A stretch of 64,000 nucleotides of DNA from a virus: IMG/VR virus record IMGVR_UViG_3300044922_000290, positions 1 through 64,000 of that record. One strand, written 5' to 3'. The position numbers and the translations under genes are program-made. The notes under the pieces were generated by a model, which saw only the letters and a program-made list of their open reading frames with translations, ran no database searches and was not told the origin of the DNA. Positions 3,001 to 53,485 of the stretch are shown here, in pieces. Numbering within the stretch: the first letter of the stretch is position 1; each line of letters begins with the position of its first letter.

Positions 3001-6000
3001 TAAGTAAAGAAGAAGAAGAGGATTTAAGAAACTATGAAGCATCTGCTTTACAGAATACAGGTATAAGCAGTATGACACAGTATGTAAGAATACTTATTGC
3101 TACTGCACACATAAATGCAATAGATAAATATGGTGTGCCTTATAAGAAAGGTATTAATCCTTCTACTATATACAATAGCATTAGCAGGACACTACTAAAT
3201 ACAGCGCCTGAAAACTTTATGAGAAAGCTTGAAATTTTCTCAGAATACAATCCTGAAGTAAAAATATTTACTGATTACTTAAAAGATAAATTAAACTGGA
3301 ATAATGAAACTAACAATCCAGGATTAAATAATGATGGAGAATTAAAAAATGAACATATATGGAATGCCTTTAAAAAAGCCTTTCATAAATTTAAGGTAGA
3401 GTCTATGATGACTAGGTTATCTTCAAACGGTGAAACTAAAGTAAGTAGTAGTAATGCTAAAGACGTAGATACACAGCAAATAGAAAGATGGCAAATAGGT
3501 TATAGAAACTTTATAGAAAAGAACTTTACTAAATTAAATATTGCAGATTTTATTTACTTTAATGCAACTTCTCCAATTACTGATGAACAACTTGAAGAGG
3601 AATCAAAAAAAGCAAAAGCAACATTAGATAGTATAGGTATAAAACTATCTCCTTTATATTTACAATACTCTTTACTTGTAACAAAGAAAGAACGTACTGA
3701 TAAACAACAGGAGCTAATGGATTTGTATGAAAACTTCTACGGATTAAATGGAAGTGATGGTAAGTTTTTAAAAGAGCTTATAACAGATTTTATAAATACA
3801 GGACTTAATCCTTTTACCAAAGGAGATGAAGGTATGATGGCTAGGTTAAAAGCTCTAGCTATGGAAAATGCTTCATTTGATGAAACAGCAGGTAGCTCTA
3901 CTTTTCAAGCTGCTGATGGAGAACTTAGGGGAGATACTTCTTTAGGTTCATTCTTCTTAAAAAGAGTAGCACAACTACAAAAACCTGAAGCAAGGGCAGA
4001 AGATTTAGAAGAATTTACCAGATTCTACGCTAATCAAGAAGATGAATGGATGATTCCACTACATCATTTAGCTACTTTAGATAATCCTTTATATGAGCAT
4101 GCTGAAACATTTGATAAAAAGTTTGTATTTACAAACATTGATGGTATAAGAGCAACAGAATATGATGAGCAGGGCAATGAGATAAATAAACAAGAAGGTA
4201 CTGTATTTAAAAATATGGTTCCTTTGGAAAAACTACTTACTTTCATGTCTTTGTATTCTACTACAAAAGTAAAAACTACAAAAGAAGGAAAGAAAATAAA
4301 CTATGCCTACTATTACCCCCAAGTAATAGAAGCTGCAAGTACAGGTTATGCAATATTACTTCCTGTAAAACCTTATTATGATAAAGGATATAAACCTGCA
4401 TTTTACCAAGCATTACTAAGTTTTGTAAAGAATGAGCATGCACGTATTAAGTATGTACAAGAAAATAAAGATTTGCCTTCAATAAGAAACTTTAATGTTG
4501 GAGAAAAGAACGGATTAAAATTCTTTGAAAACTCTTGGATTTCACCTGAATTATCTGAAAAGCTAATAGCTTTAAATTCTGTAGATGAAATGTCTGTAGA
4601 GTTAAAGAAAGAGTTAAAAGATAACATTGATCAATTTGTACAACAAGACTACTTACTTACTGTAGATACATTAGTAAGAGAAGGAGCAATAATTGAAGTA
4701 GAAGGAGAATTTTACACAAGACTATTGCCAGAAGCTTTTAGAACTGATAAAAAAATAACAAAAGACGAAAAGACCTATCAAAAAGTAAATACAGAAAAGA
4801 TAAGGTCAATGCAGGCTAACTACCTCATTAATGGGCAAGCTTTTAATACTTTATTGCATGGAGACTTGGCTTACAAAATTAAAAGTCCTGAAGACCATGT
4901 AAAAAGGTTAAAAGGGGCACATGGAGCTTTAACTTCTTTATACGGAAGGCAAATAAAATTTAAAGTTATTCCTGACATAAAAAAAGATAAAAGAAAAATA
5001 GTAGTTGATGGGTTACCTAAATTTGTAGAAGTTACAGAAGCAGAAAAAGCAGAAGCAAGAGAAAAAATTATAGCAGGCAACCCTAATTTATCTGAAAAAG
5101 AGATAGTAAAGAAAATAAAAGAAAAACTTGAACTTGATGAACATAACCTTGCAGATGCACAGGCGTATACTACTTTAGACTTTCAAATTGCTCGTTTAAA
5201 AGAATTAGGTAAAACTTCACCTGCAATAGTTAAGATACTTGAAAAAGTAAGGAATGGTGTAGAAATTACAAGGAAAGAGCTTGAATTACTAGAAGGAGCT
5301 GACTCTTTACTTAATCCTAAAAAAGACTTAGCTTATGCACTTAACGCTAATTTAAAGATGTCTGTCCTTACACTAACTAGAGAACTTGTTTCATACAAAT
5401 CTAAAGGAGAGTGGCTTGCTATACCAGGGCGTGAAAAAGAGCATAAGATACTAAATGATATGGTAAAGAATACCATAGATTTAGTAGCCCATGAATCTGC
5501 AAGTAAAGGCACTACAATCATAGATGAAGTAAGAACTTTAAATGGGGAATACTATGGTGAGCAAGTATTAACTAAAGGAGTTAAACAGAAAATAACTGAT
5601 GGTACACAACAGCTAGCTTTAATTTGGTCAGAATTACCACAAGAACTTGAAAGCCTTGTAGAAAAACTAGACGAGGCTGAACAAAACAGGGTAATACAAT
5701 CAACAGAGTTTGCACTTTCTTTACTTAAAGAAAAAGATGAAACAACTCTTAAAAAAGTTTTACCTAACTGGTATAATAGTTTAGTATCTACAGGGGCTTC
5801 TCCACAATTATTAGAAATATTTAAACCTAATGCTGCTGGAGAACCTACATTAAATCCTAACATATCTATATCTGTAGCTAAATTTACTGCAATGTACTTA
5901 GCCCATTGGTCTAATCACGCTTTAAAACAAAAAGTTGCAGGCTCTAAATTTACTCTTGTAACTCCATTTAATGTAATGGTAGATAAAGATGATAATGTAG

Positions 6001-9000
6001 TAAGAGTAGATCAGTTTAAATCAGGTGCAAAATATACTAAACCAAGACCTCTGGCTTACAACAAAAGAGGTAAACTAAATGGTAGAGAAATAGTTTATTC
6101 AGAGTGTATTGTATCTGCTTATTACAAAGAATTGTATAATCTAAAAGAAGGTGATGAAATACCTGAAGATTTGGCTTATATGATGGGTTATCGTATTCCT
6201 ACAGAAGATAAAGCCTCTATGGGCGTACTTAAAGTAGTAGATTTCTTACCTGCAATATATGGTAATGCCATAATGATTCCTGAAGAATTGCAATACCTTT
6301 CAGGTGCTGACTTTGATATTGACTCTCTGTTTGTACAAAAATATGATATATACGAAAAAGATGGTAAGTTCTACAAATATGGTAGTGCCACAACTACTGA
6401 AGGTCAATTTGAAGAGTTTTTAAATTATGTAAAAGATGAGACTGATGTAGTTGATTACCAAAAAACTTTGTTAGAAGCTAACGAAGAATACCAAGATCTT
6501 TTAAAACAAGAAAAGGAACTACAAAAATTAATAGAAGCTAGGAATGAAAATATTGCAGAGTTAGACGAAAAACTAAGGGAGGCAAATGATTTTATACCTC
6601 TATCTTTATATGAAGAATCTGAAAAAGAGATTACAAGGTCTTGGGTACTCCCCGCAAAATCTAAAGAAATAGCTGAACAAAAAAGCTTAATAGAACAAGC
6701 AAAAGAAATACAACAAAGAAAGCAAGAAATAAAAGCTAATAAACTAGCAAGTGCCTTACGTTATTATGAATTACCTGCAAGTAAAACTGCTTGGGCAGCT
6801 GCTGTAAAAGAAGGTAAATATCCTGATGGTAAATTTAAAGCTGTTCTTAATAACGATTTGCTTACTTACAAATTAGAAATGTTAGGTAATGAAAAAGTAC
6901 AAAATACTTTGGCTTCTGAAAAAACATCTAACGAACCTTTATTAAAGCTACAAGAAACGCTAGCAATGCAATTTCCTGCTACATTTGATAGTGGTAAACA
7001 ATCATTAGGATTCTTTAGCTTTAATGATTTAGCAGTAGCTATGGCTAATAATGATGCAGGTTCTGATGGTATTGGCCCAGCAGCTGTATTTAATGTACTA
7101 TACCAATACTTAGCTAAACAAGGTGTAGGTATAAAAGATGCTCAAAGATTTGCAATAAAAGAAGGCTTTACTGTAAGAAAATATTATCAATTTAAAGGGT
7201 TTTCTTTTAAAAAGGACGGGGTATATAGAAATGCTGAAAACAAAAGGATTGTAAAAACCATTTCAGCAATCATTTCAGCAATGACTGATAATGCTAAAGA
7301 ACCTATTGCAGCAAAGTTAAATCTTAACTTAGAAACATTAGGGCCTGTACTTGTAATGTTAGGAACTGGTGTAAAACTAAGCACAGCTATAAAAATAGCA
7401 AACTCACCTAAAGTAAAACAACTATCGCAAGAAATACTACAAAGTAAGTCTAACTTTTCTGATGTATCTGCGTATAGTATTGTGCAGAATGCAAAAGCAG
7501 AAGTGGCTGATGTAGATTTTACACAAGAAACCACAGTATTAGACGAAGAGTTGCTAGACCTTTTATTAAAAGATGGAGAAGATATTGGAACAACATCTGA
7601 TATTGCATTAAAATTGTATTTAAATGCACGAGAAATATCAGAAGATATATTAAAAGGGCGTGATATACTTTCTCTACGCAAAGGTGTACCTGCTACTTTT
7701 GGTGAAGTAGATAAAATAATAACTTCTTTAAATAAACTAAGAGATGGAAAAACTCCTGCAACACTAGGATTAAGTAGATTACTAGACGTTAAACCTATTG
7801 AAGCCTTAACCAAAGCACTTGAAGATTTAAATAGTGTTGCACAACAGTTATTTACAATGCAACACCCATATATTAAAGAAACCTTTAATGTGGTAAAACA
7901 AGAAGTTAAAAGGTCAGAAAGTAAAGATGTATCAAATAAGATATATAGCGATTTAAGTTCTTTTATGAGTTTGTCAATTTTTAGAAAATACTTAGAAGAC
8001 TATGTTCCATCTAAAAAGAATGAAGTTAAATTTATAGAAACATTTAAAGAAGTATTTACAGAAGATGTTTTGTTTGAAAAAACATTACTAGAAGAAGTAG
8101 AAGATTTAAAAAAGAATGCTAAAAAGTATAATTTACAGAACAATAGGTTTTTAAAATATCTATCTACTGAATCAAGGTTAATAAAAAGAACTGTAGATAA
8201 AATAGAAGGTAATACACGCCAGTTAAGAGATTCGGATTACCAATTAGAACTTATTAATGGCTTTGATGATTTATACGCAAATCCTTTAACAAGAAAAACA
8301 GCTGTAAAACTATTTGCTTACATACTACTTAAAGATGGTGCTAGATATAGAAATGCTTCATTCCAATCTGAGATACCTTCTTACATGTTTAAGATATACT
8401 CAAACGCTTTAGATGCGTTTAGAAGTAATCCTAGTATGGTTGATGTAGTTAAACTTGGAAATGAATTTATAAAGTTATATAGTTTAAACCTGGATAACAG
8501 AAAAAGCCTGTATAAAATATCAAAAAGTAATCCTCTATTAGGTAAGGGTAAAAAAGATGGTTCATTCAAAGAAGAAGCAGGACAAGTAGCTATATCAAGG
8601 ATAGAAAATAGTGTGTTCCCAGAAATAGCTGCTGCTTATAACTTTGAATATAATTCAAAAGATGATGTATATAAACCTGTACCTTTCTTAATGGTTGGTA
8701 ATAATTTAAAGGTTATTTCAGAAATAAATGGAAAAGCTGTAACTAATTTATCTGATTTACGTGAAGGAGATAATTTTGTATATAAAGCTGCAAAAGATGT
8801 ATTTGGTATATACAGCCTTACCCCTTCAAAAAGAGGTATATCAGGTTATAGTTTCCCTTTAGAAAAAGCAATAGATTTATTTGGAGCTAAAGTTACAGAA
8901 GCAAAAGAAGAAGAAGAAGCTGAAAGTAGCGCAGGAATATCATTAGAAGAATTTTTACAGGCTAATAATTACTCTGATTTTAAAGAACCTGCTCCTGCTG

Positions 9001-9317
9001 AAAGAATAGTAACTGAGGCAGAATATAAGGAAATAAAAGCTGCTGAACCTGTTACTCCACCAACTGTAAAAGCTGCTCCTAAAGTTACCTCTGTATCAGA
9101 ACAGCTTAAAGAATGGGGTGTTACTTTTATAGAAGGAGTGGATCCATCTGGATTATTTCCTATGACAAAAGTAGAGTTTAATAAAAACACAGATCAGAGA
9201 GTAAAAGATATAGTAAATAGAAATTTAGATAGTGGTATTCTCTCACAAAGTGCTATCTTAGCAGATATTTTAAAAGCAGGAAAAACAGAAACACTTAAAA
9301 AAGCAATAGAATGTTAA
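3..9317 (+). CDS. Giant virion-associated DNA-dependent RNA polymerase / polyvalent ejection protein (5'-partial, >3100 aa)
   Basis: I translated 3-1700 by hand: the frame of the 1701 ORF is open with no stop, so the gene starts upstream of the window. Catalytic GADFDIDSLF (DFDID at 6309-6323) is preceded by YRIPTEDKASM, as in crAss-like two-barrel RNAPs. A zincin HEAFH motif lies at about 2256-2270. Confidence 0.92.
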   Translation, partial: TPTALDAVKTIPEGIQQKPGEKNKVGNRYLVLLENGNWAVLEHKELTLAEFETVFKELLDLQKRIKEGEKVDNDTLNEINDKVQQAYYVAQGEPTKDYLVARLSTKGTFTIRNINYTTGKESGKPIKSGIQKIETVYNTLSKEGTIKGNEESLRLKVGFKNSGLKVNYNNAIPEAAQPKEAVTSVEVEDKIAELRAKEEVEVKKIIPNIDDYKVGGVINKDKVLEGIEERKKAELKKAESTTTEIVEETEPNGKKVFLGTPSKDGYFINKNVKTKFDEEENVYEFILTSDTTAKFKVHSHPEAVKSALKFPDKTIDTVSTSLNGFTPSANGIRTVKYGEAVLEGDKWVVKNKAEIEYTGGNTKPAQATSGTSVEATKAVEAKYKAQADAYNEIYDRYDKLITGAAKGTSTETKATVTIPILTTVKVDLASLSIDELNNVAKQLRQKAVDARQAEKEGKTVLGGSVSVESDYQAVKKYIAELAALETKTEEIISTTPEQLKKDVAALLNKALQELKEANATGKNFILGFHGGRTFDKADRTKQYTGEFRDPEVKRVAESAGARYEGEMLFFTEDLSEEGNKFTYETAIRSATAYAIKYGDDAPSIQAYLIPLNETQFANKGLGEVGVTYDDIEADRIRKIGSVDFTRKIVTKDTTEAPVTEQPTSVRERRKNKSNEINNDINAEGPFKVSELPAETKIKFEEALAYLRSILPFEVGDIDAIADRLTNNGITFGAFIDNVIYLNKAAEAGTEYHEAFHGVMSLFSTEERAKYLEVAKKEHKITDKARAEFVLQRPVYQNLSKEALDKVMLEEYLADKFMAWKQGKKEPNGFFAKMFDKIKKFFDGIKDYFGGNLDSLFHRIDSGKYKHRTIGGNKLPMFMALPYNTEKIKGTDEKIIKKLNSTEESDLINTIRVEVGELITESLASKDVYTIKQAFDKVLEMRDNLYLDKADELSEEEGDEYYQKNSGLFKITGVKEAVFEKVKSQIQFLLSVDEEIAERILSKEEEEDLRNYEASALQNTGISSMTQYVRILIATAHINAIDKYGVPYKKGINPSTIYNSISRTLLNTAPENFMRKLEIFSEYNPEVKIFTDYLKDKLNWNNETNNPGLNNDGELKNEHIWNAFKKAFHKFKVESMMTRLSSNGETKVSSSNAKDVDTQQIERWQIGYRNFIEKNFTKLNIADFIYFNATSPITDEQLEEESKKAKATLDSIGIKLSPLYLQYSLLVTKKERTDKQQELMDLYENFYGLNGSDGKFLKELITDFINTGLNPFTKGDEGMMARLKALAMENASFDETAGSSTFQAADGELRGDTSLGSFFLKRVAQLQKPEARAEDLEEFTRFYANQEDEWMIPLHHLATLDNPLYEHAETFDKKFVFTNIDGIRATEYDEQGNEINKQEGTVFKNMVPLEKLLTFMSLYSTTKVKTTKEGKKINYAYYYPQVIEAASTGYAILLPVKPYYDKGYKPAFYQALLSFVKNEHARIKYVQENKDLPSIRNFNVGEKNGLKFFENSWISPELSEKLIALNSVDEMSVELKKELKDNIDQFVQQDYLLTVDTLVREGAIIEVEGEFYTRLLPEAFRTDKKITKDEKTYQKVNTEKIRSMQANYLINGQAFNTLLHGDLAYKIKSPEDHVKRLKGAHGALTSLYGRQIKFKVIPDIKKDKRKIVVDGLPKFVEVTEAEKAEAREKIIAGNPNLSEKEIVKKIKEKLELDEHNLADAQAYTTLDFQIARLKELGKTSPAIVKILEKVRNGVEITRKELELLEGADSLLNPKKDLAYALNANLKMSVLTLTRELVSYKSKGEWLAIPGREKEHKILNDMVKNTIDLVAHESASKGTTIIDEVRTLNGEYYGEQVLTKGVKQKITDGTQQLALIWSELPQELESLVEKLDEAEQNRVIQSTEFALSLLKEKDETTLKKVLPNWYNSLVSTGASPQLLEIFKPNAAGEPTLNPNISISVAKFTAMYLAHWSNHALKQKVAGSKFTLVTPFNVMVDKDDNVVRVDQFKSGAKYTKPRPLAYNKRGKLNGREIVYSECIVSAYYKELYNLKEGDEIPEDLAYMMGYRIPTEDKASMGVLKVVDFLPAIYGNAIMIPEELQYLSGADFDIDSLFVQKYDIYEKDGKFYKYGSATTTEGQFEEFLNYVKDETDVVDYQKTLLEANEEYQDLLKQEKELQKLIEARNENIAELDEKLREANDFIPLSLYEESEKEITRSWVLPAKSKEIAEQKSLIEQAKEIQQRKQEIKANKLASALRYYELPASKTAWAAAVKEGKYPDGKFKAVLNNDLLTYKLEMLGNEKVQNTLASEKTSNEPLLKLQETLAMQFPATFDSGKQSLGFFSFNDLAVAMANNDAGSDGIGPAAVFNVLYQYLAKQGVGIKDAQRFAIKEGFTVRKYYQFKGFSFKKDGVYRNAENKRIVKTISAIISAMTDNAKEPIAAKLNLNLETLGPVLVMLGTGVKLSTAIKIANSPKVKQLSQEILQSKSNFSDVSAYSIVQNAKAEVADVDFTQETTVLDEELLDLLLKDGEDIGTTSDIALKLYLNAREISEDILKGRDILSLRKGVPATFGEVDKIITSLNKLRDGKTPATLGLSRLLDVKPIEALTKALEDLNSVAQQLFTMQHPYIKETFNVVKQEVKRSESKDVSNKIYSDLSSFMSLSIFRKYLEDYVPSKKNEVKFIETFKEVFTEDVLFEKTLLEEVEDLKKNAKKYNLQNNRFLKYLSTESRLIKRTVDKIEGNTRQLRDSDYQLELINGFDDLYANPLTRKTAVKLFAYILLKDGARYRNASFQSEIPSYMFKIYSNALDAFRSNPSMVDVVKLGNEFIKLYSLNLDNRKSLYKISKSNPLLGKGKKDGSFKEEAGQVAISRIENSVFPEIAAAYNFEYNSKDDVYKPVPFLMVGNNLKVISEINGKAVTNLSDLREGDNFVYKAAKDVFGIYSLTPSKRGISGYSFPLEKAIDLFGAKVTEAKEEEEAESSAGISLEEFLQANNYSDFKEPAPAERIVTEAEYKEIKAAEPVTPPTVKAAPKVTSVSEQLKEWGVTFIEGVDPSGLFPMTKVEFNKNTDQRVKDIVNRNLDSGILSQSAILADILKAGKTETLKKAIEC

Positions 9318-12300
9318 TTTGCCCTTTAAATTCAAAAATAAACGAACTAACAGTATCATTAGGTAACTACTATGACGCTATGCAAGTGTATCTACTGTCT
9401 GAAGGTAAATACCCCTCAAAAGAAGATGCTTTAAAAATACGTAACAGGTTTAAAAATACACCTTTTTATTCTAGTATATCTCAGTACGAAGATAACTTAA
9501 GTATATATAAAAACTTTACTACAAATGGTGTGGTTCAGGGGTTAGATAAAGCAGAATTAGCTGAAGTAGAAAAGATATTTAGAAACAGGGGGTTTAAAAT
9601 TACTGTACCTTTACATAAAGTACAAGGTTCAAGAAAACTAAGAGATAGAGAATCTTGGATGTTTATAGCAGATACTCCTATGTATCAAGCAGTAGAAGTA
9701 AGTAGAGAAGAGCTTTTACAAGATGAGGGCTTAATAGACCAAGACAAAGCTGAAGATAAAATAGCATTTAATAAGACTGAATATCAGTTTAAAGCTGTAA
9801 ACATAATAACAGCAAATCTTACTAAAATATCTTCTCTATTTAAAAACTTAAAAGATACTGATGTATTTTGGAGTAAAATACAAAAAGACTTTCAGATACC
9901 TAAAGATCAAATAGAATTACTAAAACAATCAGAAGGAGCTACTATTGAAGAAAAACTAGCTTCTTTTGTAGCTAATTATAGTTATACAGTACAAACTGAA
10001 GTTACTAAAGAAAGAATATTTAAACGCCAAGCTTTTGACGGAGATGAAAGAGAATTTATAGATGATTATGGTAATAATTATATTGCTACTTCTTCTGCTA
10101 CCCATGAAGGATATGATTACTTTAAAAATGATGAAGAAATAACAGGAAATGATTTTCATGAAGCTTATGATAAACATATAGAGGAAAATAATGTAGAAAA
10201 TCAAAATACTGCAACTTATTCTAATCTAACTGTACCTGGAGGTACTAACTATACAGAGAATGAAATAAAAACTCCAGATATTACTCCTTCTATTAAAGGA
10301 CATGCTGAGTTTAGTTCTGATCAAGGTATAGGTTGGTTTAGAAGTGATGAACAAATCAGTAAAAAAGAAGATGTCTGGGAAGAAATAGATGATTGGGCAG
10401 GTAAAAGAAAAGAATACAAAGAAACTAAAAAATATGGCTCTAAAACCCGTAGAATACTAGAAGTACAATCTGATTTATTTCAGAAAGGTAGAGATAAAAA
10501 AGATTTAGTTACTTCTACTATAGTTTCTTCTAATGTTAGTCAAGGAATGGTCGGTAAAGCAGATATGCAAGAATATTTAGATGCTATGTTATATTCTTTA
10601 ACAGCTTATGAAGGATATTCTCAAAAAGATGCAGAAGATAAAGTAGAAGAAGAAAGAAAAAGATTATTAAGTCTAGTTCCTAGTAAAGAAAATAGTTCTG
10701 AAAATAAATTCCTACAACTTCTAAACAAAGATAATAACTGGGTAACATTTTTTGTTAAAAACATTATTCAAGATAGTGCTAAAAAAGGATATGAAAAAGT
10801 ATTATTTCCTTCTGGTAATACAGCAAGTAAGATTGAAAAACATGATACTTTAGAAGAATTTAAGGAACAGAAAGAAGATAGGATTAAAAATAGAGAAGAA
10901 TTTTTAACAGAATTAAAAAAAAGAGATAAACCTTGGGTAATATTAGATGATAGTAAACTATCTGATAAAGATAGAATATATTTTAATAGTGAAAGTGATG
11001 CCATTAAATACATTGAAGATAATGATAATCTAAACCTAAGATATACACTAAATGATCAAGCTTCTATATATAAAGAAATAGAAGATATAAATACTGAAAT
11101 AGCTCAACTTAAACAAGAACTTGAAAGAGTTAATGGCCCTGAAGGATTAGCAGCTTTAAAACCTATTTATAATTTTTATGAAAACACTATAGCAAATGTT
11201 TTAAAGAAACAAGGTTATAATGCTAAAGTTGTTACTGATGAATATGGTAACACATGGAATGAAGTTACTGTAGAACCTAATAGAGATTTAAAACCTATTG
11301 CATTTAATAAAACTACTTCTGTAGTAGATAAGGAAGCTAAAACTGCCGTAGTAAAGATGTTAGATAAGCTATCTAAAAGATTTGGAGTTAGCTACGAAAT
11401 AATAAATGCTAAGAAAGCTAAGAGTTTATATAACAATTATAATGGTGAAAAAGCTTTCTACTATAAAGGTAAAGTATACATATTAGAAGATGGAATTACT
11501 CTAGAGAATGCTTTACACGAGTTTTCTCACCCTTTCATAAGAGCTATAGCTCAAAAGAATGTAGAGCTTTTTACTAACATAGTAGAAGAAATACTTTCTA
11601 CACCTGAAGGTAAGGCTATATATAATCAAGTAAAAGAGTTATACCCTGAACATGTAGTTGATGGTGAATTAAATTATGAAGGATTTGAAGAAGTAGCTGT
11701 ACGTGCTTTAACAGCAGAAGCTCAAAAGCAGTATACTAATCCTTCTTTTGAAAGTGCTGTACAAAGGCTTATAAAAGCTATAAAGAACCTTCTTAGAGGA
11801 TTATTCTCTACTAATGCTGTAGATAGTATTGATAGTAATACTTCTTTAAAAGAACTTGCTGAAATATTGTTAGGTGATGATGCATATAGTTTAGATTTAA
11901 AAGATGGTACTTTTGCAGCAAATAAATCTGTTAAGTACGAAATATATAATGGATTACCATTTACCGAAGAATCTTTAGCAAGAATGAGTGATGGTGAAAA
12001 AAGGATTACAGTAAGAACCAAAGTACATCCAACAGGTATATATGAATATAATGGGCAGAGATTCAAAATACTTAATCTTGGTCAAAAAAATATAAAAGAC
12101 TTTAAAACTCCTGAAAGGGTAAAAAGAAAATTCAGAGAAGAGTATAAAAAAGGTATGTTCAAACATATAGATAGCTTTTTTGATGGAAAAACTAATTTAT
12201 TTGTGTATCAAATAGAAAAGATTGATAATTCTATAGTAAATGAATATGTAAAAGAAGAGCCTCTTGATGAAGATCTTGTATTTACTAATGCTACTACCAA

Positions 12301-15300
12301 TGCTACATTAAAGGCCATAAAAGATTGGTTAGTTTCTAAAAAAGATTCTGCGTTAAAACATAAATCTGATACAGGGCTATTATCTAAGATTAAAAAAGTA
12401 GAAGATATAGAAGAACAGCTTAAGCAATTAAGTTTAGCTGAAATTATGGGCAGTATAGTTGATGATGTATACAGTGCTCTTGCAGACCCCAATAACCCAA
12501 ATAGTTACTTATTGCAATTTAAAAAAATTATACAAGAAGTAGCTTCAGCAGAAACAAGAGAAGATGCTGAAAAGGTAGTAGAAAAAATAGGAGCTTACAA
12601 AGAGTATGTAGCAGGTTTAAAAATTATTGATGATTTACTTAACTACCAATTAGCAGAAGAAAAGCCGAATGAGGGCTCTACCCTTGCTAAACTAAATGGT
12701 ATAAAAAATGCTTTATTTGAACTTGATAAAAAAATAAAAGATACAGCTCCTTACGTATTAGCTATAGCTAACAAAGGTTCTATAAATGAAGAACTTCGTA
12801 AGAATATAGAAGCTTACTGGCCTATGATAAAAAAACTAGAGTCAGATATAAGAGAATTAGAAGCTAAAGGAGAGAAAATAAAAGCAGCTGCCCTTAAGTC
12901 TAAAAAAGAAGATTTAGAAAGAAAGTTAGGGTTTCCTTTGTTAGGAGATTTAACACAAATCTATTTAGAAGGAGGTAATGATATAAATTTCTTTGAAAGA
13001 ATGGTTAAAACTGTTGCTAATACCGCAGATGCTGCAATAGGATTGTTCTATAAAAGGTATAAAGAAGAAATAGATAAGGGAAGAAAAAAGATAAATGAAC
13101 TTACTAAATCTACTTACTACAAATACAAACAGTTTACAGAAGGTAAATCAATAGATAACTTTGAGCAGCTGTATGAAAAAATGACTGAAGATGTAGATGT
13201 TCTTAGATATAATGAAGATAGTGGGCAATATGAAACATTTACAGAAAAATGGTTTATATCAGATTTTGACCAAAATGCATATAATCTTAAAAGAAAACAA
13301 GCTTATGATTTAGCAGCGCTAGAAGAAAAGAAAGCCAGAGATGCAGCTGCAAATGGTGATAATGAGGGTTATAAAGAAGGAATGGCTACTGCAAGAAGAA
13401 TAAGGGCTAACTTTAGAAGAAATAATACTATAGCACAAGATAAGTTAGAAGGCAGGGATAAAGTAATAGAAATACTTCTACAAAAAGAAAAATTATTTGA
13501 TAACAGTGCGGAAGGTAAAAGTCAGTTTTATGCTTGGGTAACTAACCATCTTTACAACGAAGAGTTATATATAGAGTATGTTTCACAAGAAGATCCTACT
13601 AAAATTGCAGAGTATGGTAAAAGATTGCTAGATAGTTATGTACAAAATAAAGGTACTAAAGTATCAGGAATGTTTTTAGTACCTGATAAAACTAAATTTC
13701 CCAATGCTAAATATAATGCATTATCTATTGAAGATAGAAAATACTACGACCATCTTTTAAGTGTATACAAAGAATCTCAAAAGCTACTACCAGAATTTGA
13801 AAGACCTGGGCTAAGAGTACCTTCTGTAGAAAAAGACATTAAAGATATTCTTATTGAACAAAAAGATGTAAAAAAATCAGCAATTGCTACATGGGAAAGA
13901 AACTTTAAAAATCACGTAGAAGATGCTTCTAAAGGTATTGTCTACAAAGGGCAAACCAAAAGAATACCTATTTATTTTAACCAAAGTATGGCCGCTGATA
14001 CAGTAAGTATGAATCTTACCGATACAGTAATGAAATTTGCTGAAATGGCTGAACAGTTTAAAATAAACTCTTCTTTAGAATCTTTAGCTCTTCTTACCAA
14101 AGAAACAATAGCTGAAAGAACTGTAGAAAAAAAGACTTCAACAGGAAAGAAAATATTAAGTGCCTTACATAAAAAAATGTATGGAGAAGAAGTTGTGGAA
14201 CCAATAAAATTTGCAGAAACAGAAGCATATAAAATGTTTGAAAGCTGGTTAGACAGTAACTTCTACAATGAACGTAGGTATGCTGCAAATTTAGGTACAG
14301 TACGTTTAGATAAAGTAGTTGATACAATGATGGCTGCAAATGCTTTATCTGTACTAGGAGCTGATGGACTTAAAGCACTTTCTAACAGACTTACAGCAGG
14401 TGTAAATATTGCAATAGAATCTTTGGGTAATAAATATTTTACAACAAAAACACTTGCAAAAGGTAAAGCTAAAGTAGGTCAATTAATGTATGCAACAGCT
14501 GGTGAAGAAAATCTTTTAATGGATACATTGAGGGGTGTAAAAACAACACACTTTGGACAAATGCTAGACATATTCCAAGCTATACAAGGTGAGAATGATG
14601 CAGTAGAAGAAATAGGAGGTTCTATGGTAAAAAGACATGCTTCTACATCATTACTAATGGGAGGTTTATCAGCAGGTGAGTTTATAGCGCAAGCTAATAT
14701 GTTTGCAGCAATAGCCTATGATATTAAAATAAAAACAAAATCTGGTGAAGAAATAAGCCTATTAGATGCCTATGTAAAAGAAGCTGATGGTATAGTAAGA
14801 CTTCGTAAAGATGTAGAATTTACTGAAGAAGATGAACAACTTTTACGTAATAAAATTAACGCCATAAACAAAGAATTACATGGGGTCTACAATAAAATAG
14901 ATGAAGTAGAAGCCAAGAAAAATTGGGTTGGCAGAGCCTTAATACAATTTCGTAACTTCTTAGTACCAAATGTAGAAAGAAGATTTCAAGAGCTGCATGT
15001 AAACTTTGAAATGAATGATATAGTAGAAGGGTATTATAAAACTCTGTACAGAAAAATGGTTACAGAAAGAAACTTTAAAATTTGGCAAATATATAATGAT
15101 CCTTCTCTAACTGAAAATGAACGTAATAACCTTAAAAAGGCAGTAGTAGAATTAACCTCTTACTTTGTACTTGCAGCAATTGTTTCAATACTTGCAGGTA
15201 TGGGAGATGATGATGATGAACTAAAAGATAACTATGCATACAATGTAGCTCTTTATTCCGCCTTAAGACTAAAAGGTGAGATAGGATTCTTTATACCAGG

Positions 15301-15550
15301 TATTAATTTAAAAGAGGGTTATAGAATTATTAAATCTCCTTCTGCTATTAATACTCTGCTAGAAAGAAGTGTTAAGTTTGGGGGCCAACTAGTTACTGAT
15401 CCATTTGCAGAGTATGAAAGAAAATCAGGGCCTTGGGAAAAAGGAGATTCTAAACTGAAAGCTAGATTTTTAAAACTATTCTTTGGGTATAACGGATCAA
15501 ACCTAGATCCAAGTATTGCAGTAGAAAATTTTAAAGGACTTTCAAACTAG
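9311..15550 (+). CDS. Giant virion/ejection protein with polyvalent domains
   Basis: 2079 aa, directly after the RNAP gene. Has an RILEVQSD-type polyvalent domain, a zincin LHEFSHP...EEVAV motif, an ASCH-like GEKRITVR segment and a C-terminal hydrophobic helix followed by DDDDE. Confidence 0.75.
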   Translation: MLICPLNSKINELTVSLGNYYDAMQVYLLSEGKYPSKEDALKIRNRFKNTPFYSSISQYEDNLSIYKNFTTNGVVQGLDKAELAEVEKIFRNRGFKITVPLHKVQGSRKLRDRESWMFIADTPMYQAVEVSREELLQDEGLIDQDKAEDKIAFNKTEYQFKAVNIITANLTKISSLFKNLKDTDVFWSKIQKDFQIPKDQIELLKQSEGATIEEKLASFVANYSYTVQTEVTKERIFKRQAFDGDEREFIDDYGNNYIATSSATHEGYDYFKNDEEITGNDFHEAYDKHIEENNVENQNTATYSNLTVPGGTNYTENEIKTPDITPSIKGHAEFSSDQGIGWFRSDEQISKKEDVWEEIDDWAGKRKEYKETKKYGSKTRRILEVQSDLFQKGRDKKDLVTSTIVSSNVSQGMVGKADMQEYLDAMLYSLTAYEGYSQKDAEDKVEEERKRLLSLVPSKENSSENKFLQLLNKDNNWVTFFVKNIIQDSAKKGYEKVLFPSGNTASKIEKHDTLEEFKEQKEDRIKNREEFLTELKKRDKPWVILDDSKLSDKDRIYFNSESDAIKYIEDNDNLNLRYTLNDQASIYKEIEDINTEIAQLKQELERVNGPEGLAALKPIYNFYENTIANVLKKQGYNAKVVTDEYGNTWNEVTVEPNRDLKPIAFNKTTSVVDKEAKTAVVKMLDKLSKRFGVSYEIINAKKAKSLYNNYNGEKAFYYKGKVYILEDGITLENALHEFSHPFIRAIAQKNVELFTNIVEEILSTPEGKAIYNQVKELYPEHVVDGELNYEGFEEVAVRALTAEAQKQYTNPSFESAVQRLIKAIKNLLRGLFSTNAVDSIDSNTSLKELAEILLGDDAYSLDLKDGTFAANKSVKYEIYNGLPFTEESLARMSDGEKRITVRTKVHPTGIYEYNGQRFKILNLGQKNIKDFKTPERVKRKFREEYKKGMFKHIDSFFDGKTNLFVYQIEKIDNSIVNEYVKEEPLDEDLVFTNATTNATLKAIKDWLVSKKDSALKHKSDTGLLSKIKKVEDIEEQLKQLSLAEIMGSIVDDVYSALADPNNPNSYLLQFKKIIQEVASAETREDAEKVVEKIGAYKEYVAGLKIIDDLLNYQLAEEKPNEGSTLAKLNGIKNALFELDKKIKDTAPYVLAIANKGSINEELRKNIEAYWPMIKKLESDIRELEAKGEKIKAAALKSKKEDLERKLGFPLLGDLTQIYLEGGNDINFFERMVKTVANTADAAIGLFYKRYKEEIDKGRKKINELTKSTYYKYKQFTEGKSIDNFEQLYEKMTEDVDVLRYNEDSGQYETFTEKWFISDFDQNAYNLKRKQAYDLAALEEKKARDAAANGDNEGYKEGMATARRIRANFRRNNTIAQDKLEGRDKVIEILLQKEKLFDNSAEGKSQFYAWVTNHLYNEELYIEYVSQEDPTKIAEYGKRLLDSYVQNKGTKVSGMFLVPDKTKFPNAKYNALSIEDRKYYDHLLSVYKESQKLLPEFERPGLRVPSVEKDIKDILIEQKDVKKSAIATWERNFKNHVEDASKGIVYKGQTKRIPIYFNQSMAADTVSMNLTDTVMKFAEMAEQFKINSSLESLALLTKETIAERTVEKKTSTGKKILSALHKKMYGEEVVEPIKFAETEAYKMFESWLDSNFYNERRYAANLGTVRLDKVVDTMMAANALSVLGADGLKALSNRLTAGVNIAIESLGNKYFTTKTLAKGKAKVGQLMYATAGEENLLMDTLRGVKTTHFGQMLDIFQAIQGENDAVEEIGGSMVKRHASTSLLMGGLSAGEFIAQANMFAAIAYDIKIKTKSGEEISLLDAYVKEADGIVRLRKDVEFTEEDEQLLRNKINAINKELHGVYNKIDEVEAKKNWVGRALIQFRNFLVPNVERRFQELHVNFEMNDIVEGYYKTLYRKMVTERNFKIWQIYNDPSLTENERNNLKKAVVELTSYFVLAAIVSILAGMGDDDDELKDNYAYNVALYSALRLKGEIGFFIPGINLKEGYRIIKSPSAINTLLERSVKFGGQLVTDPFAEYERKSGPWEKGDSKLKARFLKLFFGYNGSNLDPSIAVENFKGLSN

Positions 15551-16688: not shown

Positions 16689-16934
16689 TTAGTTTATAAT
16701 TTTAACTCGTTCATTATTACTTAGTTTAACAATGTACACGCCATCATCTAATTTAGATACTTCTTTACCTACTACATCTGTAATAGATTCAATCTCTGGT
16801 ACCTCAATGTTAGGTGCTATAGAGTCTGTACAAGTATTCATATACCTTGTAGTTAGCTTTGGATTACCATTACAACAGATTCTACAAGATTGTAGTAAAA
16901 GTGTTGTTACAATTAATATTATTAGTTTTTTCAT
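16689..16934 (-). CDS. Small lipoprotein with a T9SS type-A sorting-domain-like C-terminus
   Basis: Signal peptide II-like MKKLIILIVTTLLLQS-C; tail ITDVVGKEVSKLDDGVYIVKLSNNERVKIIN. Confidence 0.6.
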   Translation of the reverse strand: MKKLIILIVTTLLLQSCRICCNGNPKLTTRYMNTCTDSIAPNIEVPEIESITDVVGKEVSKLDDGVYIVKLSNNERVKIIN

Positions 16935-41549: not shown

Positions 41550-42113
41550 TTAAAGTATCTCTTTAATAAGAGAATCCAATTGTACTTCAATATCTTTTCC
41601 AAAGATAAGTGTTTTATTTGCTTTTATCAAATCTAAATCGTATTCTGAAAGATTATTATCAGTTAAAGGATTAGTAATTTCTACTACTATTAATTCATCT
41701 TCACAATCATTATCTATACAATTAGCCAAAGCAAAATGTTCACTATCAAATCTTAAATCAGATACAATCACAAAAGAAGGTTTAGTTTCCCAAATATCTC
41801 CTGTACTTACTTGAAAATCATAATCTTTAATTTTCTTTACAAGCTCTTCAGCAAAAACATTAGTACTAAATGCAGATTTTATAGCATCAGCAGTAGTTTC
41901 TAATAAATTTCTACCAACTTCTTTTTCATCTCTATTCTCCCAATTAAGAGGAGATTTTTTAGGAAAAAATGCTTTATCTACTATCTTCTTCAAAGGTTCA
42001 GCAAAAGATAATACTTTATTACTAATACCTTTTTCATCTAATTTCTTAGCCAACATAGCTGCTACTGTGGATTTACCTGAGCCATTTTTGCCTTTTAGTG
42101 CTATTATTTTCAT
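41550..42113 (-). CDS. Deoxynucleoside monophosphate kinase-like protein
   Basis: GKNGSGKST, SFAEPLK and VSDLRF motifs. Confidence 0.8.
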   Translation of the reverse strand: MKIIALKGKNGSGKSTVAAMLAKKLDEKGISNKVLSFAEPLKKIVDKAFFPKKSPLNWENRDEKEVGRNLLETTADAIKSAFSTNVFAEELVKKIKDYDFQVSTGDIWETKPSFVIVSDLRFDSEHFALANCIDNDCEDELIVVEITNPLTDNNLSEYDLDLIKANKTLIFGKDIEVQLDSLIKEIL

Positions 42114-48880: not shown

Positions 48881-49084
48881 TTATTTGTCTATTACTTGTT
48901 CATAATAATCAGCTGCTACTATTCCTGATGTCCACCAACCTATTAATACAGTATAAGCGTAGAACCAATTAGGGTCAGTAATAACTGATTGATAGTTAAA
49001 CCATAACATACCAAATAATGATAGTATGAAGAATAAAGCTGCAAATACAGCTATAAAGATAATGAATAAGATGAAGTATTTCAC
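48881..49084 (-). CDS. Small two-TM membrane protein
   Basis: Probable GTG start at 49084 after an A-rich leader; two hydrophobic helices. Confidence 0.5.
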   Translation of the reverse strand: MKYFILFIIFIAVFAALFFILSLFGMLWFNYQSVITDPNWFYAYTVLIGWWTSGIVAADYYEQVIDK

Positions 49085-49280
49085 GTTGTTTGTTTTTAGA
49101 GTTAATAAAAATAAAGTATCTGTGCTATTATTCATAGTATGAACCTATACACCAAGTTTCCTGATACTTTATGCATTAATGTTCGCCATTTATGCTTAAC
49201 GGTCTGTAACCTTTAGATTCTCCAAAGGTAGTGTTTCTAATGTATGTTATATAACAGACTTTCCATATACATTAGCTAGA

Positions 49281-49586
49281 TTATTGCTCTGTTGATTGAT
49301 TCTCAAAAGCATTAAGGTCAGATTCATCTAAATAAAGAGAATAAAAATGAGCTTCTACAATCATTGAGGCTTCATCATAAGCCCATTGAAGTATATGGCT
49401 AGCATTATTATAATCCTTCATCTTTTTTAAGATAGATAAATAAGGCGCAAAGTCTTTTTGTTCAAATTTATGAGCATTAAATGCCATATTTTGTACAAGA
49501 ACACTTGCTGTAATAACCATATTCCATTTATAAAGGTCGCCTAAATCTCTAAGCAACTCTTCTAATTTTGTTAATTCTTGTTTCAC
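49281..49586 (-). CDS. Hypothetical protein
   Basis: GTG start with A-rich leader. Confidence 0.55.
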   Translation of the reverse strand: MKQELTKLEELLRDLGDLYKWNMVITASVLVQNMAFNAHKFEQKDFAPYLSILKKMKDYNNASHILQWAYDEASMIVEAHFYSLYLDESDLNAFENQSTEQ

Positions 49587-49863
49587 GTTTCTGTTTGTTT
49601 GAGTTAGTAATAAAATAAACTATAGTACTATCAACAGTCTTCAAGTTACTTTATGAAGCTCTAAGTTTAAGCTGAAGAATATACCAATGGTTATACTCTT
49701 GTCATACTATAGTAGTAATTGTAATTCTATCGTACTCTAAATGGAACTTCAATCCACGTCTCTGAGCATACAATAGTTTTCATAGGTTATTTAAGCCTAC
49801 TATTACAAGTAAGAAAGTTCACCCAAAACTGACATTACATCAATCTCAGGTGAACTCAAAGAG

Positions 49864-50214
49864 TTAATTTTCTAAGTGAGATATATGCTCTTTATACATC
49901 ATTTGATCATATACATCTGTTGAAGTACGAGTTTTTAAATAAATCAAGGCTTTATTTTTTAAGTTCTCTTTTTCATTAGATATATCTAAGTTCAAATGCT
50001 CTTTTAACTGTTTACTTGTTAGTAATCCCTGATATTTACCATTTCGGTAGATTTCAGCAGCTAGAAAAGGTTTTGATATAAAAGCAAATTGTTCTTCTCC
50101 ACTTAACCAGTCTTTCCAAATATGTTCTTGGTACGTATGAACTGGTAATAATAGACTTAAAACTATTTTAAGGTCTATATCATTTTTTGGTTGGATTGTT
50201 TCTGTAAAAGTCAT
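49864..50214 (-). CDS. Hypothetical early protein
   Basis: Probable start at MTFTET (50214) after an A-rich leader. Confidence 0.55.
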   Translation of the reverse strand: MTFTETIQPKNDIDLKIVLSLLLPVHTYQEHIWKDWLSGEEQFAFISKPFLAAEIYRNGKYQGLLTSKQLKEHLNLDISNEKENLKNKALIYLKTRTSTDVYDQMMYKEHISHLEN

Positions 50215-50298
50215 TGTTATGTTTTTTGAGTTTGAGCTACCATGCACTCCTTGTATTTATCATTGTTTATACTCTATGAAAGGAACATAAAAGAGTTA

Positions 50299-50409
50299 AT
50301 AATCCCTCTGCACTCAGTTGTAATACACGAGACTATCCGACCTGTCTCTCACGGTTTGATGTATTACAACTGCTCACCCTTGGGAAGTGAGTTATGGTGC
50401 ATTAATTAT
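50299..50409 (-). ncRNA. Twister ribozyme (type-P1, with long P5 insertion)
   Basis: P1 AUAAU/AUUAU; L1 UAA and GAGGG; P2 UGCA/UGCA; P4 CUCAC/GUGAG with loop UUCCCAAGG; T2 CCC:GGG; T1 CC:GG; P5 CAGUUGUAAUACA/UGUAUUACAACUG. Confidence 0.8.
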
Positions 50410-50574
50410 GAAGGTTATCTGAACACCTACAAACGCCAGTAGCTTACTGGATAGACACGAGGTTAAAGGAATCGTGACAATACTTTATTGCTATAATATT
50501 ATAAGATAAACAGGGTAAAATACTACAGTTTTCAGGATGTTGGAAAGGATAGTTGGTAATCCATTATAACAAAT

Positions 50575-50590
50575 TGTTCCACGTGAAACA
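50575..50590. promoter_or_regulatory. parS (ParB/Spo0J-binding) site
   Basis: TGTTCCACGTGAAACA, an exact match to the TGTTNCACGTGAAACA consensus, in non-coding DNA. Confidence 0.8.
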
Positions 50591-50760
50591 TTACATAATG
50601 TATTGACTATCAACACTTTCAGAAGAAAATTAATAAACTATAGCATTAGTAGTGGCCTTGATTATATCTAACATCATTTCACCGTTAAATATAAATGTAC
50701 CCTCCTAAAACACCTAATACTATAGTCTATTAATAGTGTAGCACATAGTGCTTAGAGAAG

Positions 50761-50782
50761 AATAAACTCCCCGTAGGGAGTT
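50761..50782 (-). terminator. Intrinsic terminator after the first leftward gene
   Basis: Minus strand AACTCCC TACG GGGAGTT followed by TATT. Confidence 0.65.
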
Positions 50783-50805
50783 ATATCTCAAGATGATTAA
50801 AGGGA

Positions 50806-51084
50806 CTATTCGTCCCTTTTCATCATCAATGTGTTGCAGGTAACCTCTTTTACCTCACCATTATCATCTGTAATCTCTACCTGTCTTGGGATTACAGTGA
50901 AATGTGCTACATTAATGTCCATTGTAGCACCCTTATTTTCCTGATTATCCAATGAAATGTAGAAGGTTAGTTTACGTGAGATACTGTTATTCTCACCTAC
51001 TTTCTGAGTAGTGTTAGTAACAATCTTGGTGAAAAACTTACCTGAAAGGTCTGACTTGCGTGAAAATTCTACTGTAAATAGCAT
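50806..51084 (-). CDS. Hypothetical beta-rich protein, first gene of the leftward arm
   Basis: 92-aa ORF. Confidence 0.6.
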   Translation of the reverse strand: MLFTVEFSRKSDLSGKFFTKIVTNTTQKVGENNSISRKLTFYISLDNQENKGATMDINVAHFTVIPRQVEITDDNGEVKEVTCNTLMMKRDE

Positions 51085-51325
51085 AAGCTGCGGATTTATT
51101 AAGTTTGTTTATAGAACACGGTGGATGAGTTTCCCCGCTGAACTTATGAGGGGGTGTTGTTTGGGGCTGGAACTTAATTCACTACACATACACCATTTCA
51201 AAAAATATTTCCAAAAATTTTTAGTGGGGGGTATCAAATATCCTATATAAACATGGGGGGTATGTTTTTTATTTTAGTAACTTTTTTGTACCTTGCAAGT
51301 ATAATTGCTATAAAATAATAAGCGA

Positions 51326-51670
51326 ATGCACAAATTACATATACCTATATACGAAATACCTTTATTTGTGTATATAGGATACCCACCTGAAGGTATTAGA
51401 AAGAAGTATAATATAGATCCAGGGTTAGATGCAGTAGCTGCTGTACATGAAATAGAAGGTGCACTTTTAGTATGGTTTCACCCAACAGAATTTATACCAT
51501 CTTTAGTAGCACATGAAGTAATACATCTTAAGAACTTGATATTCACACATATATCTTTTAAACAAGATCCTACAAATGATGAAGCAGAAGCTTATCTTGT
51601 AGAATACTTAGTAAAAGAAATAGAGAAAGTTTTCAAAAAATACAACCTTTCTCAGAAAAAAGTAGTATAA
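51326..51670 (+). CDS. Small zincin-like metallopeptidase
   Basis: VAHEVIH...EAEAYL motif. Confidence 0.7.
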   Translation: MHKLHIPIYEIPLFVYIGYPPEGIRKKYNIDPGLDAVAAVHEIEGALLVWFHPTEFIPSLVAHEVIHLKNLIFTHISFKQDPTNDEAEAYLVEYLVKEIEKVFKKYNLSQKKVV

Positions 51671-51919: not shown

Positions 51920-53485
51920 ATGAGCAAAATAATAGAATTTCACACAAGATCCCTCCAGAAAGGTGCTAACATTTTAGCAAATGCAGTAAAAGGTACTCTT
52001 GGCCCACAAGGAAGGAATGTAATTCTTTCACGTCAATTCAATGCACCACACATTACTAAAGATGGTGTTAGTGTAGCTTCTTCAATAAAGCTTGAAGATC
52101 CAAATGAAAATCTTGGAGCACAACTTTTACAGGAGATAGCTAACAAAACACTAGAAGTCTCAGGAGATGGTACTACTACAAGTATTGTTTTAGCACAAAC
52201 CATTCTTAATGAAGGACTAAGACTAATAGCTGAAGGCACAAATCCTGTAAAACTAAAGAAAGGTATAGAGCTAGCAACAGTAGAAGCTATACAATCTATT
52301 AAATCACAATCACTACTATTACAATCAGATTCTATTCTTAATGTAGCTACTATATCAGCTAATAATGACTTTACTATAGGTAAACTAATAGCTGATGCTG
52401 TAAATCTAGTAGGAGAAGAAGGTTTAATTACAGTTGAAGAATCAAGGTCTACTGAAACATACATAGAAGTTACAGAAGGACTAAAGATAGATAAAGGGTA
52501 CATTTCACCTTACTTTGTTACTGATCCTAATAAGATGGTAGTAGAATACCAGAATGCACTTATCCTGATTACAGATGAGAAGATAACAGCTACTACTCAA
52601 ATACTTAAGTACTTAGAAGCTTGTGTAAAAGAACAAAGAGCTCTTATTATTATCTGTGAAGACTTATTAGATGAAGCTCTTTCTACTCTTGTAGTAAACA
52701 GAATGAAAGGTATCAAAGTAGCAGCTATCAAAGCTCCTGCACATGGTGACCACAAGAAAGAACTATTACAGGATATAGCTACAATAACTGGTGGTCTATA
52801 TATTACTCAAGATAAAGGATTATCACTAGAATCTTCTCAACTATCTTCTTTAGGACAATCAGATGTTAAAATCTTTAAAGACTCTACCACTCTTATTAAT
52901 GGTAAAGGCAAGAAAGAAGACATACTTATCAGAGTATCTCAAATTAAAGAACAAGCTAAACACGCTGAATTACAGTTTGACCAAGATAGGCTAACCAAGA
53001 GAGCACAGAAACTTTCAGGAGGAGCAGCTGTATTATATGTAGGAGCAACAACTGAAACAGAGTTAAAAGAAAAAGCTGATAGAATAGATGATGCACTTTG
53101 TGCTACAAAAGCTGCAATAGCTGAAGGTATAGTACCAGGAGGAGGAACAGCATTTATAAAAGCAATAGCTTCTATCTCTTCTTCAAAAGATAAAGACATT
53201 CAGTCAGGTATTGACTTAATAAAGAAAGCATTAGAAGCACCTCTTCGTCAAATACTTCAAAATGCAGGACTAGAAGAAGATACTATTATTTCTAAAGTAA
53301 AGAAAGGCAAACAGTTTAATGCCAAGTCAGAACAATATGAAGATCTATTAGTTTCAGGAGTAATAGACCCAACAAAAGTAGTAAGAGTAGCCTTGGAAAA
53401 CGCATCATCAGTATGTGCACTATTCCTAACTACTTCTTGTGTAGTAGCAGAAAAATATATAGAAACCCCAATGAACTTTAATTAA
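51920..53485 (+). CDS. groEL: Chaperonin GroEL
   Basis: TLGPQGRNV, ITKDGVSVA, GDGTTT, GIVPGGG and GVIDPTKV motifs. Confidence 0.97.
   Translation: MSKIIEFHTRSLQKGANILANAVKGTLGPQGRNVILSRQFNAPHITKDGVSVASSIKLEDPNENLGAQLLQEIANKTLEVSGDGTTTSIVLAQTILNEGLRLIAEGTNPVKLKKGIELATVEAIQSIKSQSLLLQSDSILNVATISANNDFTIGKLIADAVNLVGEEGLITVEESRSTETYIEVTEGLKIDKGYISPYFVTDPNKMVVEYQNALILITDEKITATTQILKYLEACVKEQRALIIICEDLLDEALSTLVVNRMKGIKVAAIKAPAHGDHKKELLQDIATITGGLYITQDKGLSLESSQLSSLGQSDVKIFKDSTTLINGKGKKEDILIRVSQIKEQAKHAELQFDQDRLTKRAQKLSGGAAVLYVGATTETELKEKADRIDDALCATKAAIAEGIVPGGGTAFIKAIASISSSKDKDIQSGIDLIKKALEAPLRQILQNAGLEEDTIISKVKKGKQFNAKSEQYEDLLVSGVIDPTKVVRVALENASSVCALFLTTSCVVAEKYIETPMNFN

Follow-up and report, generated by a model that had tools for sequence, protein, structure and literature searches.

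A candidate host-type parS site in a variable intergenic cassette of a distant crAss-like phage

Results

A single chromosomal-type parS near the junction of the transcription arms

At positions 50575-50590 (plus strand) of the window, by which we mean the whole 64-kb stretch of viral DNA analysed here, lies TGTTCCACGTGAAACA, a chromosomal-type parS sequence that matches TGTTNCACGTGAAACA at 16/16 positions. The minus strand across the same positions reads TGTTTCACGTGGAACA, and the dyad symmetry of the 16-mer is such that 7/8 pairs are palindromic. The 16-mer sits within an extended 20-mer, AATTGTTCCACGTGAAACAT (50572-50591), whose A/T flanks fit the AAA-parS-TTT preference seen in a flank logo of other viral sites, and it is the single site within two mismatches of TGTTNCACGTGAAACA in the whole 96,431-bp record, with no repeats. 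It falls in an ORF-free gap (50248-50805), among the largest non-coding stretches of the genome, at the head of the leftward arm between its first ORF (50806-51084, minus strand, 92 aa) and its second (49864-50247, minus strand, 127 aa), neither of which matched a known family. The first leftward ORF starts at 51084, 494 bp from the site, and the first rightward ORF (51326-51670) is about 735 bp away from it. The minimum of the cumulative GC skew is located here, at the divergence point of both transcription arms. The preliminary description of this DNA, which had placed an exact 16-bp match in intergenic DNA about 500 bp from the arm divergence, is confirmed by these positions. A 41-codon frame runs across parS and is broken by stops in two related contigs, L002 and L003; the DNA at parS was therefore taken to be non-coding, and a small protein encoded over the site was ruled out.

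The same gap holds a terminator-like hairpin (50765-50782, minus strand), downstream of ORF 50806-51084, and a perfect 13-bp inverted repeat (50315-50327 and 50360-50372). The minus-strand RNA of 50505-50790 is predicted to fold at -77.6 kcal/mol (z = -4.9, 0/200 shuffles as stable), compared with z = -1.5 for the plus strand, and in this fold the 16-mer forms its own 6-bp hairpin, in which the lone non-palindromic pair turns into a G-U pair. In the crAss-like phage phi14:2, the early region is headed by long intergenic segments that give rise to very highly transcribed non-coding RNAs (10.1101/2020.03.07.982082), which the stretch 50505-50790 resembles. At gathering thresholds the sole Rfam match in the phage was a tRNA-Arg, and a permissive Rfam scan of 49000-51500 (E <= 5) returned two chance-level matches only, with no twister ribozyme on the minus strand at 50299-50409.

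Ending 65 nt before parS is a promoter-like 25-nt motif, TTATTGCTATAATATTATAAGATAA (50485-50509, plus strand), with a perfect TGnTATAAT; the extended -10 element inside it is TGCTATAAT. The motif, with which all the cassettes compared here open, is identical across the window, L002, L003 and L005 despite diverged flanks and is slightly different in L006. A second copy, 89% identical, lies at 51302-51322 (plus strand), 4 nt ahead of the ATG that begins the first rightward ORF. The 25-nt motif is probably a sigma-70-type promoter, like the middle promoters of phi14:2, which are of the sigma-70 type (10.1101/2020.03.07.982082).

Homology between the window and L006, the corresponding locus of the sister genome G005, stops at 50485 and is back at 50733, with unrelated sequence in between, so that parS is carried in a variable cassette (50485-50733). 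A metagenome scan with the 25-nt motif matched only a contig that was already known and therefore gave no further cassette relatives in the scanned metagenomes. The replacement cassette of L006 contains, at 3378-3397, a lambda-operator-like palindrome, TTATCAC-N6-GTGATAA, and TTATCAC also occurs within the degenerate counterpart of parS in L003.

The phage, its probable host and its lack of partition genes

The record (IMGVR_UViG_3300044922_000290), whose first 64 kb make up the window, is an uncultured metagenome assembly with an estimated completeness of 95%, classed by IMG/VR as linear without terminal repeats; the G+C of the phage genome is 32%. Two giant ORFs occupy 3-9317 and 9311-15550, and the rightward arm encodes, in this order, TerL (phrog_6681), the portal protein (phrog_6547) and the major capsid protein (MCP). 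GenBank matches of the MCP were to Crassvirales only, at about 24% identity, and the hosts of those phages are Bacteroides and Cellulophaga. Judged by these genes, the phage is a distant, environmental crAss-like phage and, since the MCP homologues are all from Crassvirales with Bacteroidota hosts, a member of the Bacteroidota is most probably its host. An 81-aa, lipoprotein-like ORF (16689-16934, minus strand) matches the T9SS type A sorting domain (TIGR04183) only below threshold, with 17.4 bits vs a cut-off of 23, which may be read as a weak hint at a Bacteroidota host. The second gene of the rightward arm (51920-53485, plus strand) codes for a GroEL that is full-length and bona fide, scoring 622 bits against TIGR02348 (above the equivalog cut-off), and that is 93-100% identical in five related contigs. 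Comparison of the 3.5-kb region with GenBank phages by megablast gave no match.

An HMM search of all six frames found no ParB_N, HTH_ParB or tyrosine integrase, and the ParA-type HMMs AAA_31 and CbiA gave nothing above cut-off in the phage. This agrees with the preliminary description, which had seen neither parA nor an integrase. With no partition genes in the phage, the site could therefore work only through host proteins. A weak ParA-like match at 42009-42113 was rejected as belonging instead to a dNMP kinase (phrog_139, E = 4.5e-19); the kinase ORF (41550-42113, minus strand, 187 aa, with a P-loop) adjoins tRNA-Arg(TCT) and is the phage's only P-loop match.

The same sequence in Bacteroidota chromosomes

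In chromosomal ParABS systems, parS is bound by ParB/Spo0J, which loads in a CTP-dependent manner and recruits SMC. Exact copies of the site were present in 101/151 Bacteroidota genomes of an even sample, with one to five per genome, usually clustered, and in 0/151 for the reversed control; the 16-mer is thus, as had been claimed for it, an exact match to the widely conserved ParB/Spo0J loading sequence. Both the C and the T variants of the site occur among Bacteroidota genomes, and the exact 20-mer was found in chromosomes of Flavobacteriaceae, Crocinitomicaceae, Saprospiraceae, Chitinophagaceae, Parabacteroides and Porphyromonas. A single ParB_N protein was encoded by all five Bacteroidota genomes checked. 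Given the sites in 101/151 genomes and ParB_N in 5/5, the phage sequence is expected to be one that a Bacteroidota ParB would recognise.

Many Bacteroidota chromosomes, G139, G147, G119 and G055 among them, have a pair of perfect palindromic parS sites separated by about 1.9 kb. In G139, G147 and G119 the single parB lies hundreds of kb from this pair and does not adjoin it.

Expectation by chance

From base composition, 3.1e-5 exact copies of the 16-mer would be expected on both strands of the record, and a first-order Markov model lowers this number to 8e-6; for the N-containing pattern the corresponding values are 2.0e-4 and 5e-5. A chance match is therefore very unlikely for this genome taken singly, as first proposed. 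This expectation is not decisive alone because about 250,000 windows had been scanned, over which a few chance 16-mers of such a kind are expected, and it is the comparative evidence that carries the case.

The site is conserved in one close relative and absent from most

Close relatives were defined as the five contigs with a GroEL 93-100% identical to that of the phage. The exact site is present in one of the five, L002. The sister genome G005 (94 kb, 92% complete, with GroEL 100% and TerL 92% identical) has no site within two mismatches anywhere, and among the four contigs besides G005, which are partial records, three are without the site. L003 has a homologous cassette that matches at 14/20 positions of the site and is not palindromic there, while L005 is the same as the window up to 50543 and unrelated beyond.

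Between L002 and the window the 20-mer is identical at 20/20 positions, whereas outside the 25-nt motif and the 20-mer only 51/107 positions (48%) agree, with a random expectation of about 28%. The spacing from motif to parS is 65 nt in both. The neutral probability of a 20/20 match with such flanks is about 4e-7, which argues that purifying selection acts on the parS motif in genomes that have it; judged by its distribution among the relatives, it is dispensable to the lineage as a whole. The parS here is a sporadic accessory cassette and no general crAss feature.

Distant relatives and reference Crassvirales

Two further IMG/VR contigs with the exact 20-mer, G024 and G037, carry a related TerL. 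G024, a 32-kb fragment, encodes a phrog_6681 TerL that is 29-31% identical to that of the window, followed by the portal protein, and shares the two-arm layout. In G024 the site (1861-1876) falls within the 320-bp gap that separates the first leftward ORF from the second, beside the divergence point and 6.57 kb upstream of TerL, compared with 5.7 kb in the window. The chance that the G024 site would fall at the equivalent position is about 10-15%, and its positional support is modest because non-coding DNA is concentrated in that region. A search of G024 and G037 for the MCP gave no match, so kinship of both with the phage is based on TerL and portal only.

G037 is a complete 95.9-kb genome with direct terminal repeats. 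Its copy of the 20-mer (C1 4604-4619, L326) is within a 273-aa ORF, and its distant TerL match is split, with one in-frame TAA.

A profile search of the TerL clade gave 80 loci, 27 of them with more than 5 kb of upstream DNA. parS was present in 2 of these 27 (control pattern 0); of the roughly 24 more distant loci where the upstream DNA was long enough, 1 carries it. Nine reference Crassvirales (crAss001, crAss002, DAC15, phi14:2, cr85_1, cr106_1, cr126_1, Kolpuevirus 'frurule' and Rudgehvirus 'jaberico') gave 0/9 with a site within one mismatch. Two parts of the initial proposal did not survive these comparisons. The proposal in its strong form had been staked beforehand on positional conservation of the site in close relatives, and what was found is a site in 1/5 contigs and in about 1/24 distant TerL loci. 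A general mechanism for the crAss-like carrier state finds no support in the nine reference genomes or in the sister G005.

Orphan parS sites across sequenced phages

The exact 20-mer occurs in 69 IMG/VR contigs, in 44 distinct and unrelated flank contexts that range in G+C from 0.28 to 0.58, and the reversed 20-mer occurs in none. ParB_N was above cut-off in only 1/40 contigs of distinct context, a 195-kb provirus; 11 of those 40 contigs are at least 90% complete, several with terminal repeats. Only 15 of the 44 sites fall within an ORF of at least 80 aa, against an ORF coverage of the loci of 81% (P = 1.3e-11). The 16-mer, which was used for the flank statistics, is present in at least 119 IMG/VR contigs, and among the matches listed none is related to the phage.

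GenBank phage records matching a 30-mer around the site numbered 415, compared with 8 for the reversed control. The carriers include the phi29 family, Listeria P100-like and Lactobacillus myoviruses, phages of Pseudomonas and Stenotrophomonas, and Microviridae; phi29-like podoviruses of Clostridium perfringens have 3-6 matching places each, and positions 50573-50594 of the window are identical over 22 nt to one known phi29 site, within gene 16. By these counts, orphan host-type parS is about 50-fold over-represented in sequenced phages and is mostly outside genes.

Several individual placements were recorded among the carriers. Some phages of Pseudomonas and Stenotrophomonas have exact parS within their terminal repeats, and exact copies are found at 383-399 of phiPsa347 and at 3820-3835 of Stenotrophomonas phage Salva. 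In gut microviruses, exact or near-exact (88-100%) matches are within replication-initiator genes.

Discussion

The phage site is most likely a selected but dispensable candidate loading site for host ParB. Some involvement of ParB seems to us probable, and that the site serves partition or positioning of the phage DNA is, in our judgement, evenly poised between true and false. If it does so, clamps of host ParB-CTP would load at parS and spread over the neighbouring few kb, covering the junction of the two transcription arms. Unintegrated phage DNA would thereby gain a partition complex for host ParA and possibly SMC, and during slow or stalled lytic growth, as in a carrier state or pseudolysogeny, the phage genomes could be positioned and inherited by daughter cells. 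The phage lineage would keep parS under selection as an optional, cassette-borne cis element. This proposal parallels the use of Spo0J and parS by phi29 for entry into the prespore. Against the partition reading, there is one site where phi29 has five, and it is within a stretch that is probably heavily transcribed and foldable as minus-strand RNA, a setting that might impede the loading of ParB or indicate a different role. The original suggestion that the phage may capture the host ParABS machinery is supported in part, favoured by selection on the motif and by the experimental precedent of phi29, and weakened by the absence of the site from most relatives.

Host ParB might bind the site for a benefit other than partition, namely silencing or timing of promoters, recruitment of SMC for replicating DNA, or titration of ParB itself, and this we consider unlikely. 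For silencing, ParB spreading from a parS placed 65 nt downstream of the promoter-like motif would affect the promoters of the arm junction; that spacing is fixed in the window and L002, a second copy of the motif is found about 730 bp away at the first rightward gene, and dispensability of the site in sister genomes suits a modulatory role. The G024 site, however, lies in the equivalent gap in the opposite orientation, and on inspection of its printed flanks the 25-nt motif was not seen. Chromosomal ParB is not generally known as a strong silencer, which also counts against this option. For titration, many phage copies would deplete host ParB and disturb segregation of the host chromosome, a role that one site per genome could fill only at a very high copy number.

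It is distinctly unlikely that the 16-mer is a chance palindrome and no ParB site, at most a small hairpin in a structured minus-strand non-coding RNA at the head of the early arm. The fold of the minus strand (z = -4.9), in which the 16-mer is its own hairpin, and the abundance of early-region intergenic non-coding RNAs in phi14:2 (10.1101/2020.03.07.982082) speak for an RNA element, as the few chance 16-mers that about 250,000 windows should yield do for coincidence. A hairpin would have no need of 16/16 identity to parS, however, and in L002 every base of the sequence is unchanged, without compensatory substitutions, amid flanks near saturation. The homologous stretch of L003 is not palindromic, so the hairpin is not a conserved RNA feature, and no Rfam family matches it. 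Chance, for its part, would have to account for the same 20-mer in 44 unrelated viral contexts with none for the control. That the site is an operator, coinciding with parS in sequence, for a DNA-binding protein other than ParB, whether encoded by the phage or not, is improbable. Its palindromic form, its intergenic position beside a promoter-like motif and the different palindrome that L006 has at the corresponding place would suit an operator, but such a reading demands exact coincidence with a 16-bp consensus (about 3e-5 per genome), leaves the same 20-mer in dozens of unrelated phages unexplained, and finds no ParB-type HTH in the phage. Least credible of all is a passive remnant of captured host DNA without function in the phage. 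The region is a mosaic of exchanged cassettes and the site is missing from most relatives, as a remnant might be, but a neutral remnant would not stay identical at 20/20 positions with its flanks at 48%. No bacterial or viral match extends beyond 25-27 nt around the site, and recent capture of host DNA was rejected on this ground.

The question addressed here is how crAss-like and other non-temperate phages persist in dividing hosts without integration. By borrowing the host centromere a phage would obtain a partition device at the lowest possible cost, 16 bp and no genes. One environmental crAss-like lineage has a selected-looking site, and this is no general answer for Crassvirales; the worth of follow-up lies in the class-wide excess of orphan, intergenic, host-type parS. 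We suggest, with more doubt than conviction, that virulent phages across bacterial phyla may widely carry orphan chromosomal-type parS as a cis element, repeatedly gained and mostly intergenic. If this were true, unintegrated phage DNA would ride on host ParABS/SMC, and the spore-entrapment trick of phi29 would become a general route to the carrier state without lysogeny genes. The cultured carriers (phi29 relatives and phages of Listeria, Lactobacillus and Pseudomonas) make the idea directly testable.

Comparison with known systems

The phage site shares with chromosomal ParABS an identical 16 bp and a comparable setting, in that it lies at a GC-skew minimum and strand switch while chromosomal sites lie near oriC. 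It differs in being a single copy on a virus, with no parAB on the replicon and no conservation in close relatives. Phage-plasmids such as P1, N15 and the actinophages of cluster A with parABS resemble it in having a centromere-like site in a phage that possibly persists without integration. P1, N15 and cluster A phages, however, encode their own ParA and ParB and have different parS repeats of their own, whereas this phage has neither protein, and the arrangement typical of phage-plasmids, with ParA/ParB genes beside centromere repeats, is represented here by neither genes nor repeats. The paper on the phage-plasmid lifestyle of the prototypic crAssphage names no partition system (PMC10983915). 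Another parallel is SGI1, which hijacks the parABS of its IncC helper plasmid by means of its own parS copies (PMC10954446): it too is a mobile element with the cis site only that borrows the ParA and ParB of another replicon. SGI1 borrows from a helper plasmid and not from the chromosome, and is an integrative element and not a phage.

In the literature searched, the coverage of which is incomplete, neither a paper dealing with parS in crAss-like phages nor a survey of orphan phage parS turned up, and discussion of orphan parS was limited to phi29. That phage bears host-type parS at five places, and segregation of its genome into the prespore is aided by Spo0J, according to the account of Meijer et al. 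(2005) given in PMC2731898. The idea is less new than the preliminary description assumed. The present phage differs from phi29 in having a single site where phi29 has five, without the several sites towards the genome ends that mark the phi29 type. Lin and Grossman (1998) reportedly found that one parS confers Spo0J-dependent stability on an unstable plasmid. In Pseudomonas aeruginosa, a single chromosomal parS is sufficient, as the title of PMC4368675 states. The two phages differ also in genome, which is 19 kb and protein-primed in phi29 vs 96 kb and crAss-like here, and in the benefit to be had, since phi29 profits from becoming trapped in the prespore of its spore-forming Firmicute host, and Bacteroidota form no spores. 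phi29 uses host ParB to move phage DNA, and the phage described here may do the same. What they have in common is that both are phages of lytic type that bear a host chromosomal parS with no ParA or ParB of their own, and on this likeness the phi29-type class of orphan parS would gain a member, the first known to us in a crAss-like phage.
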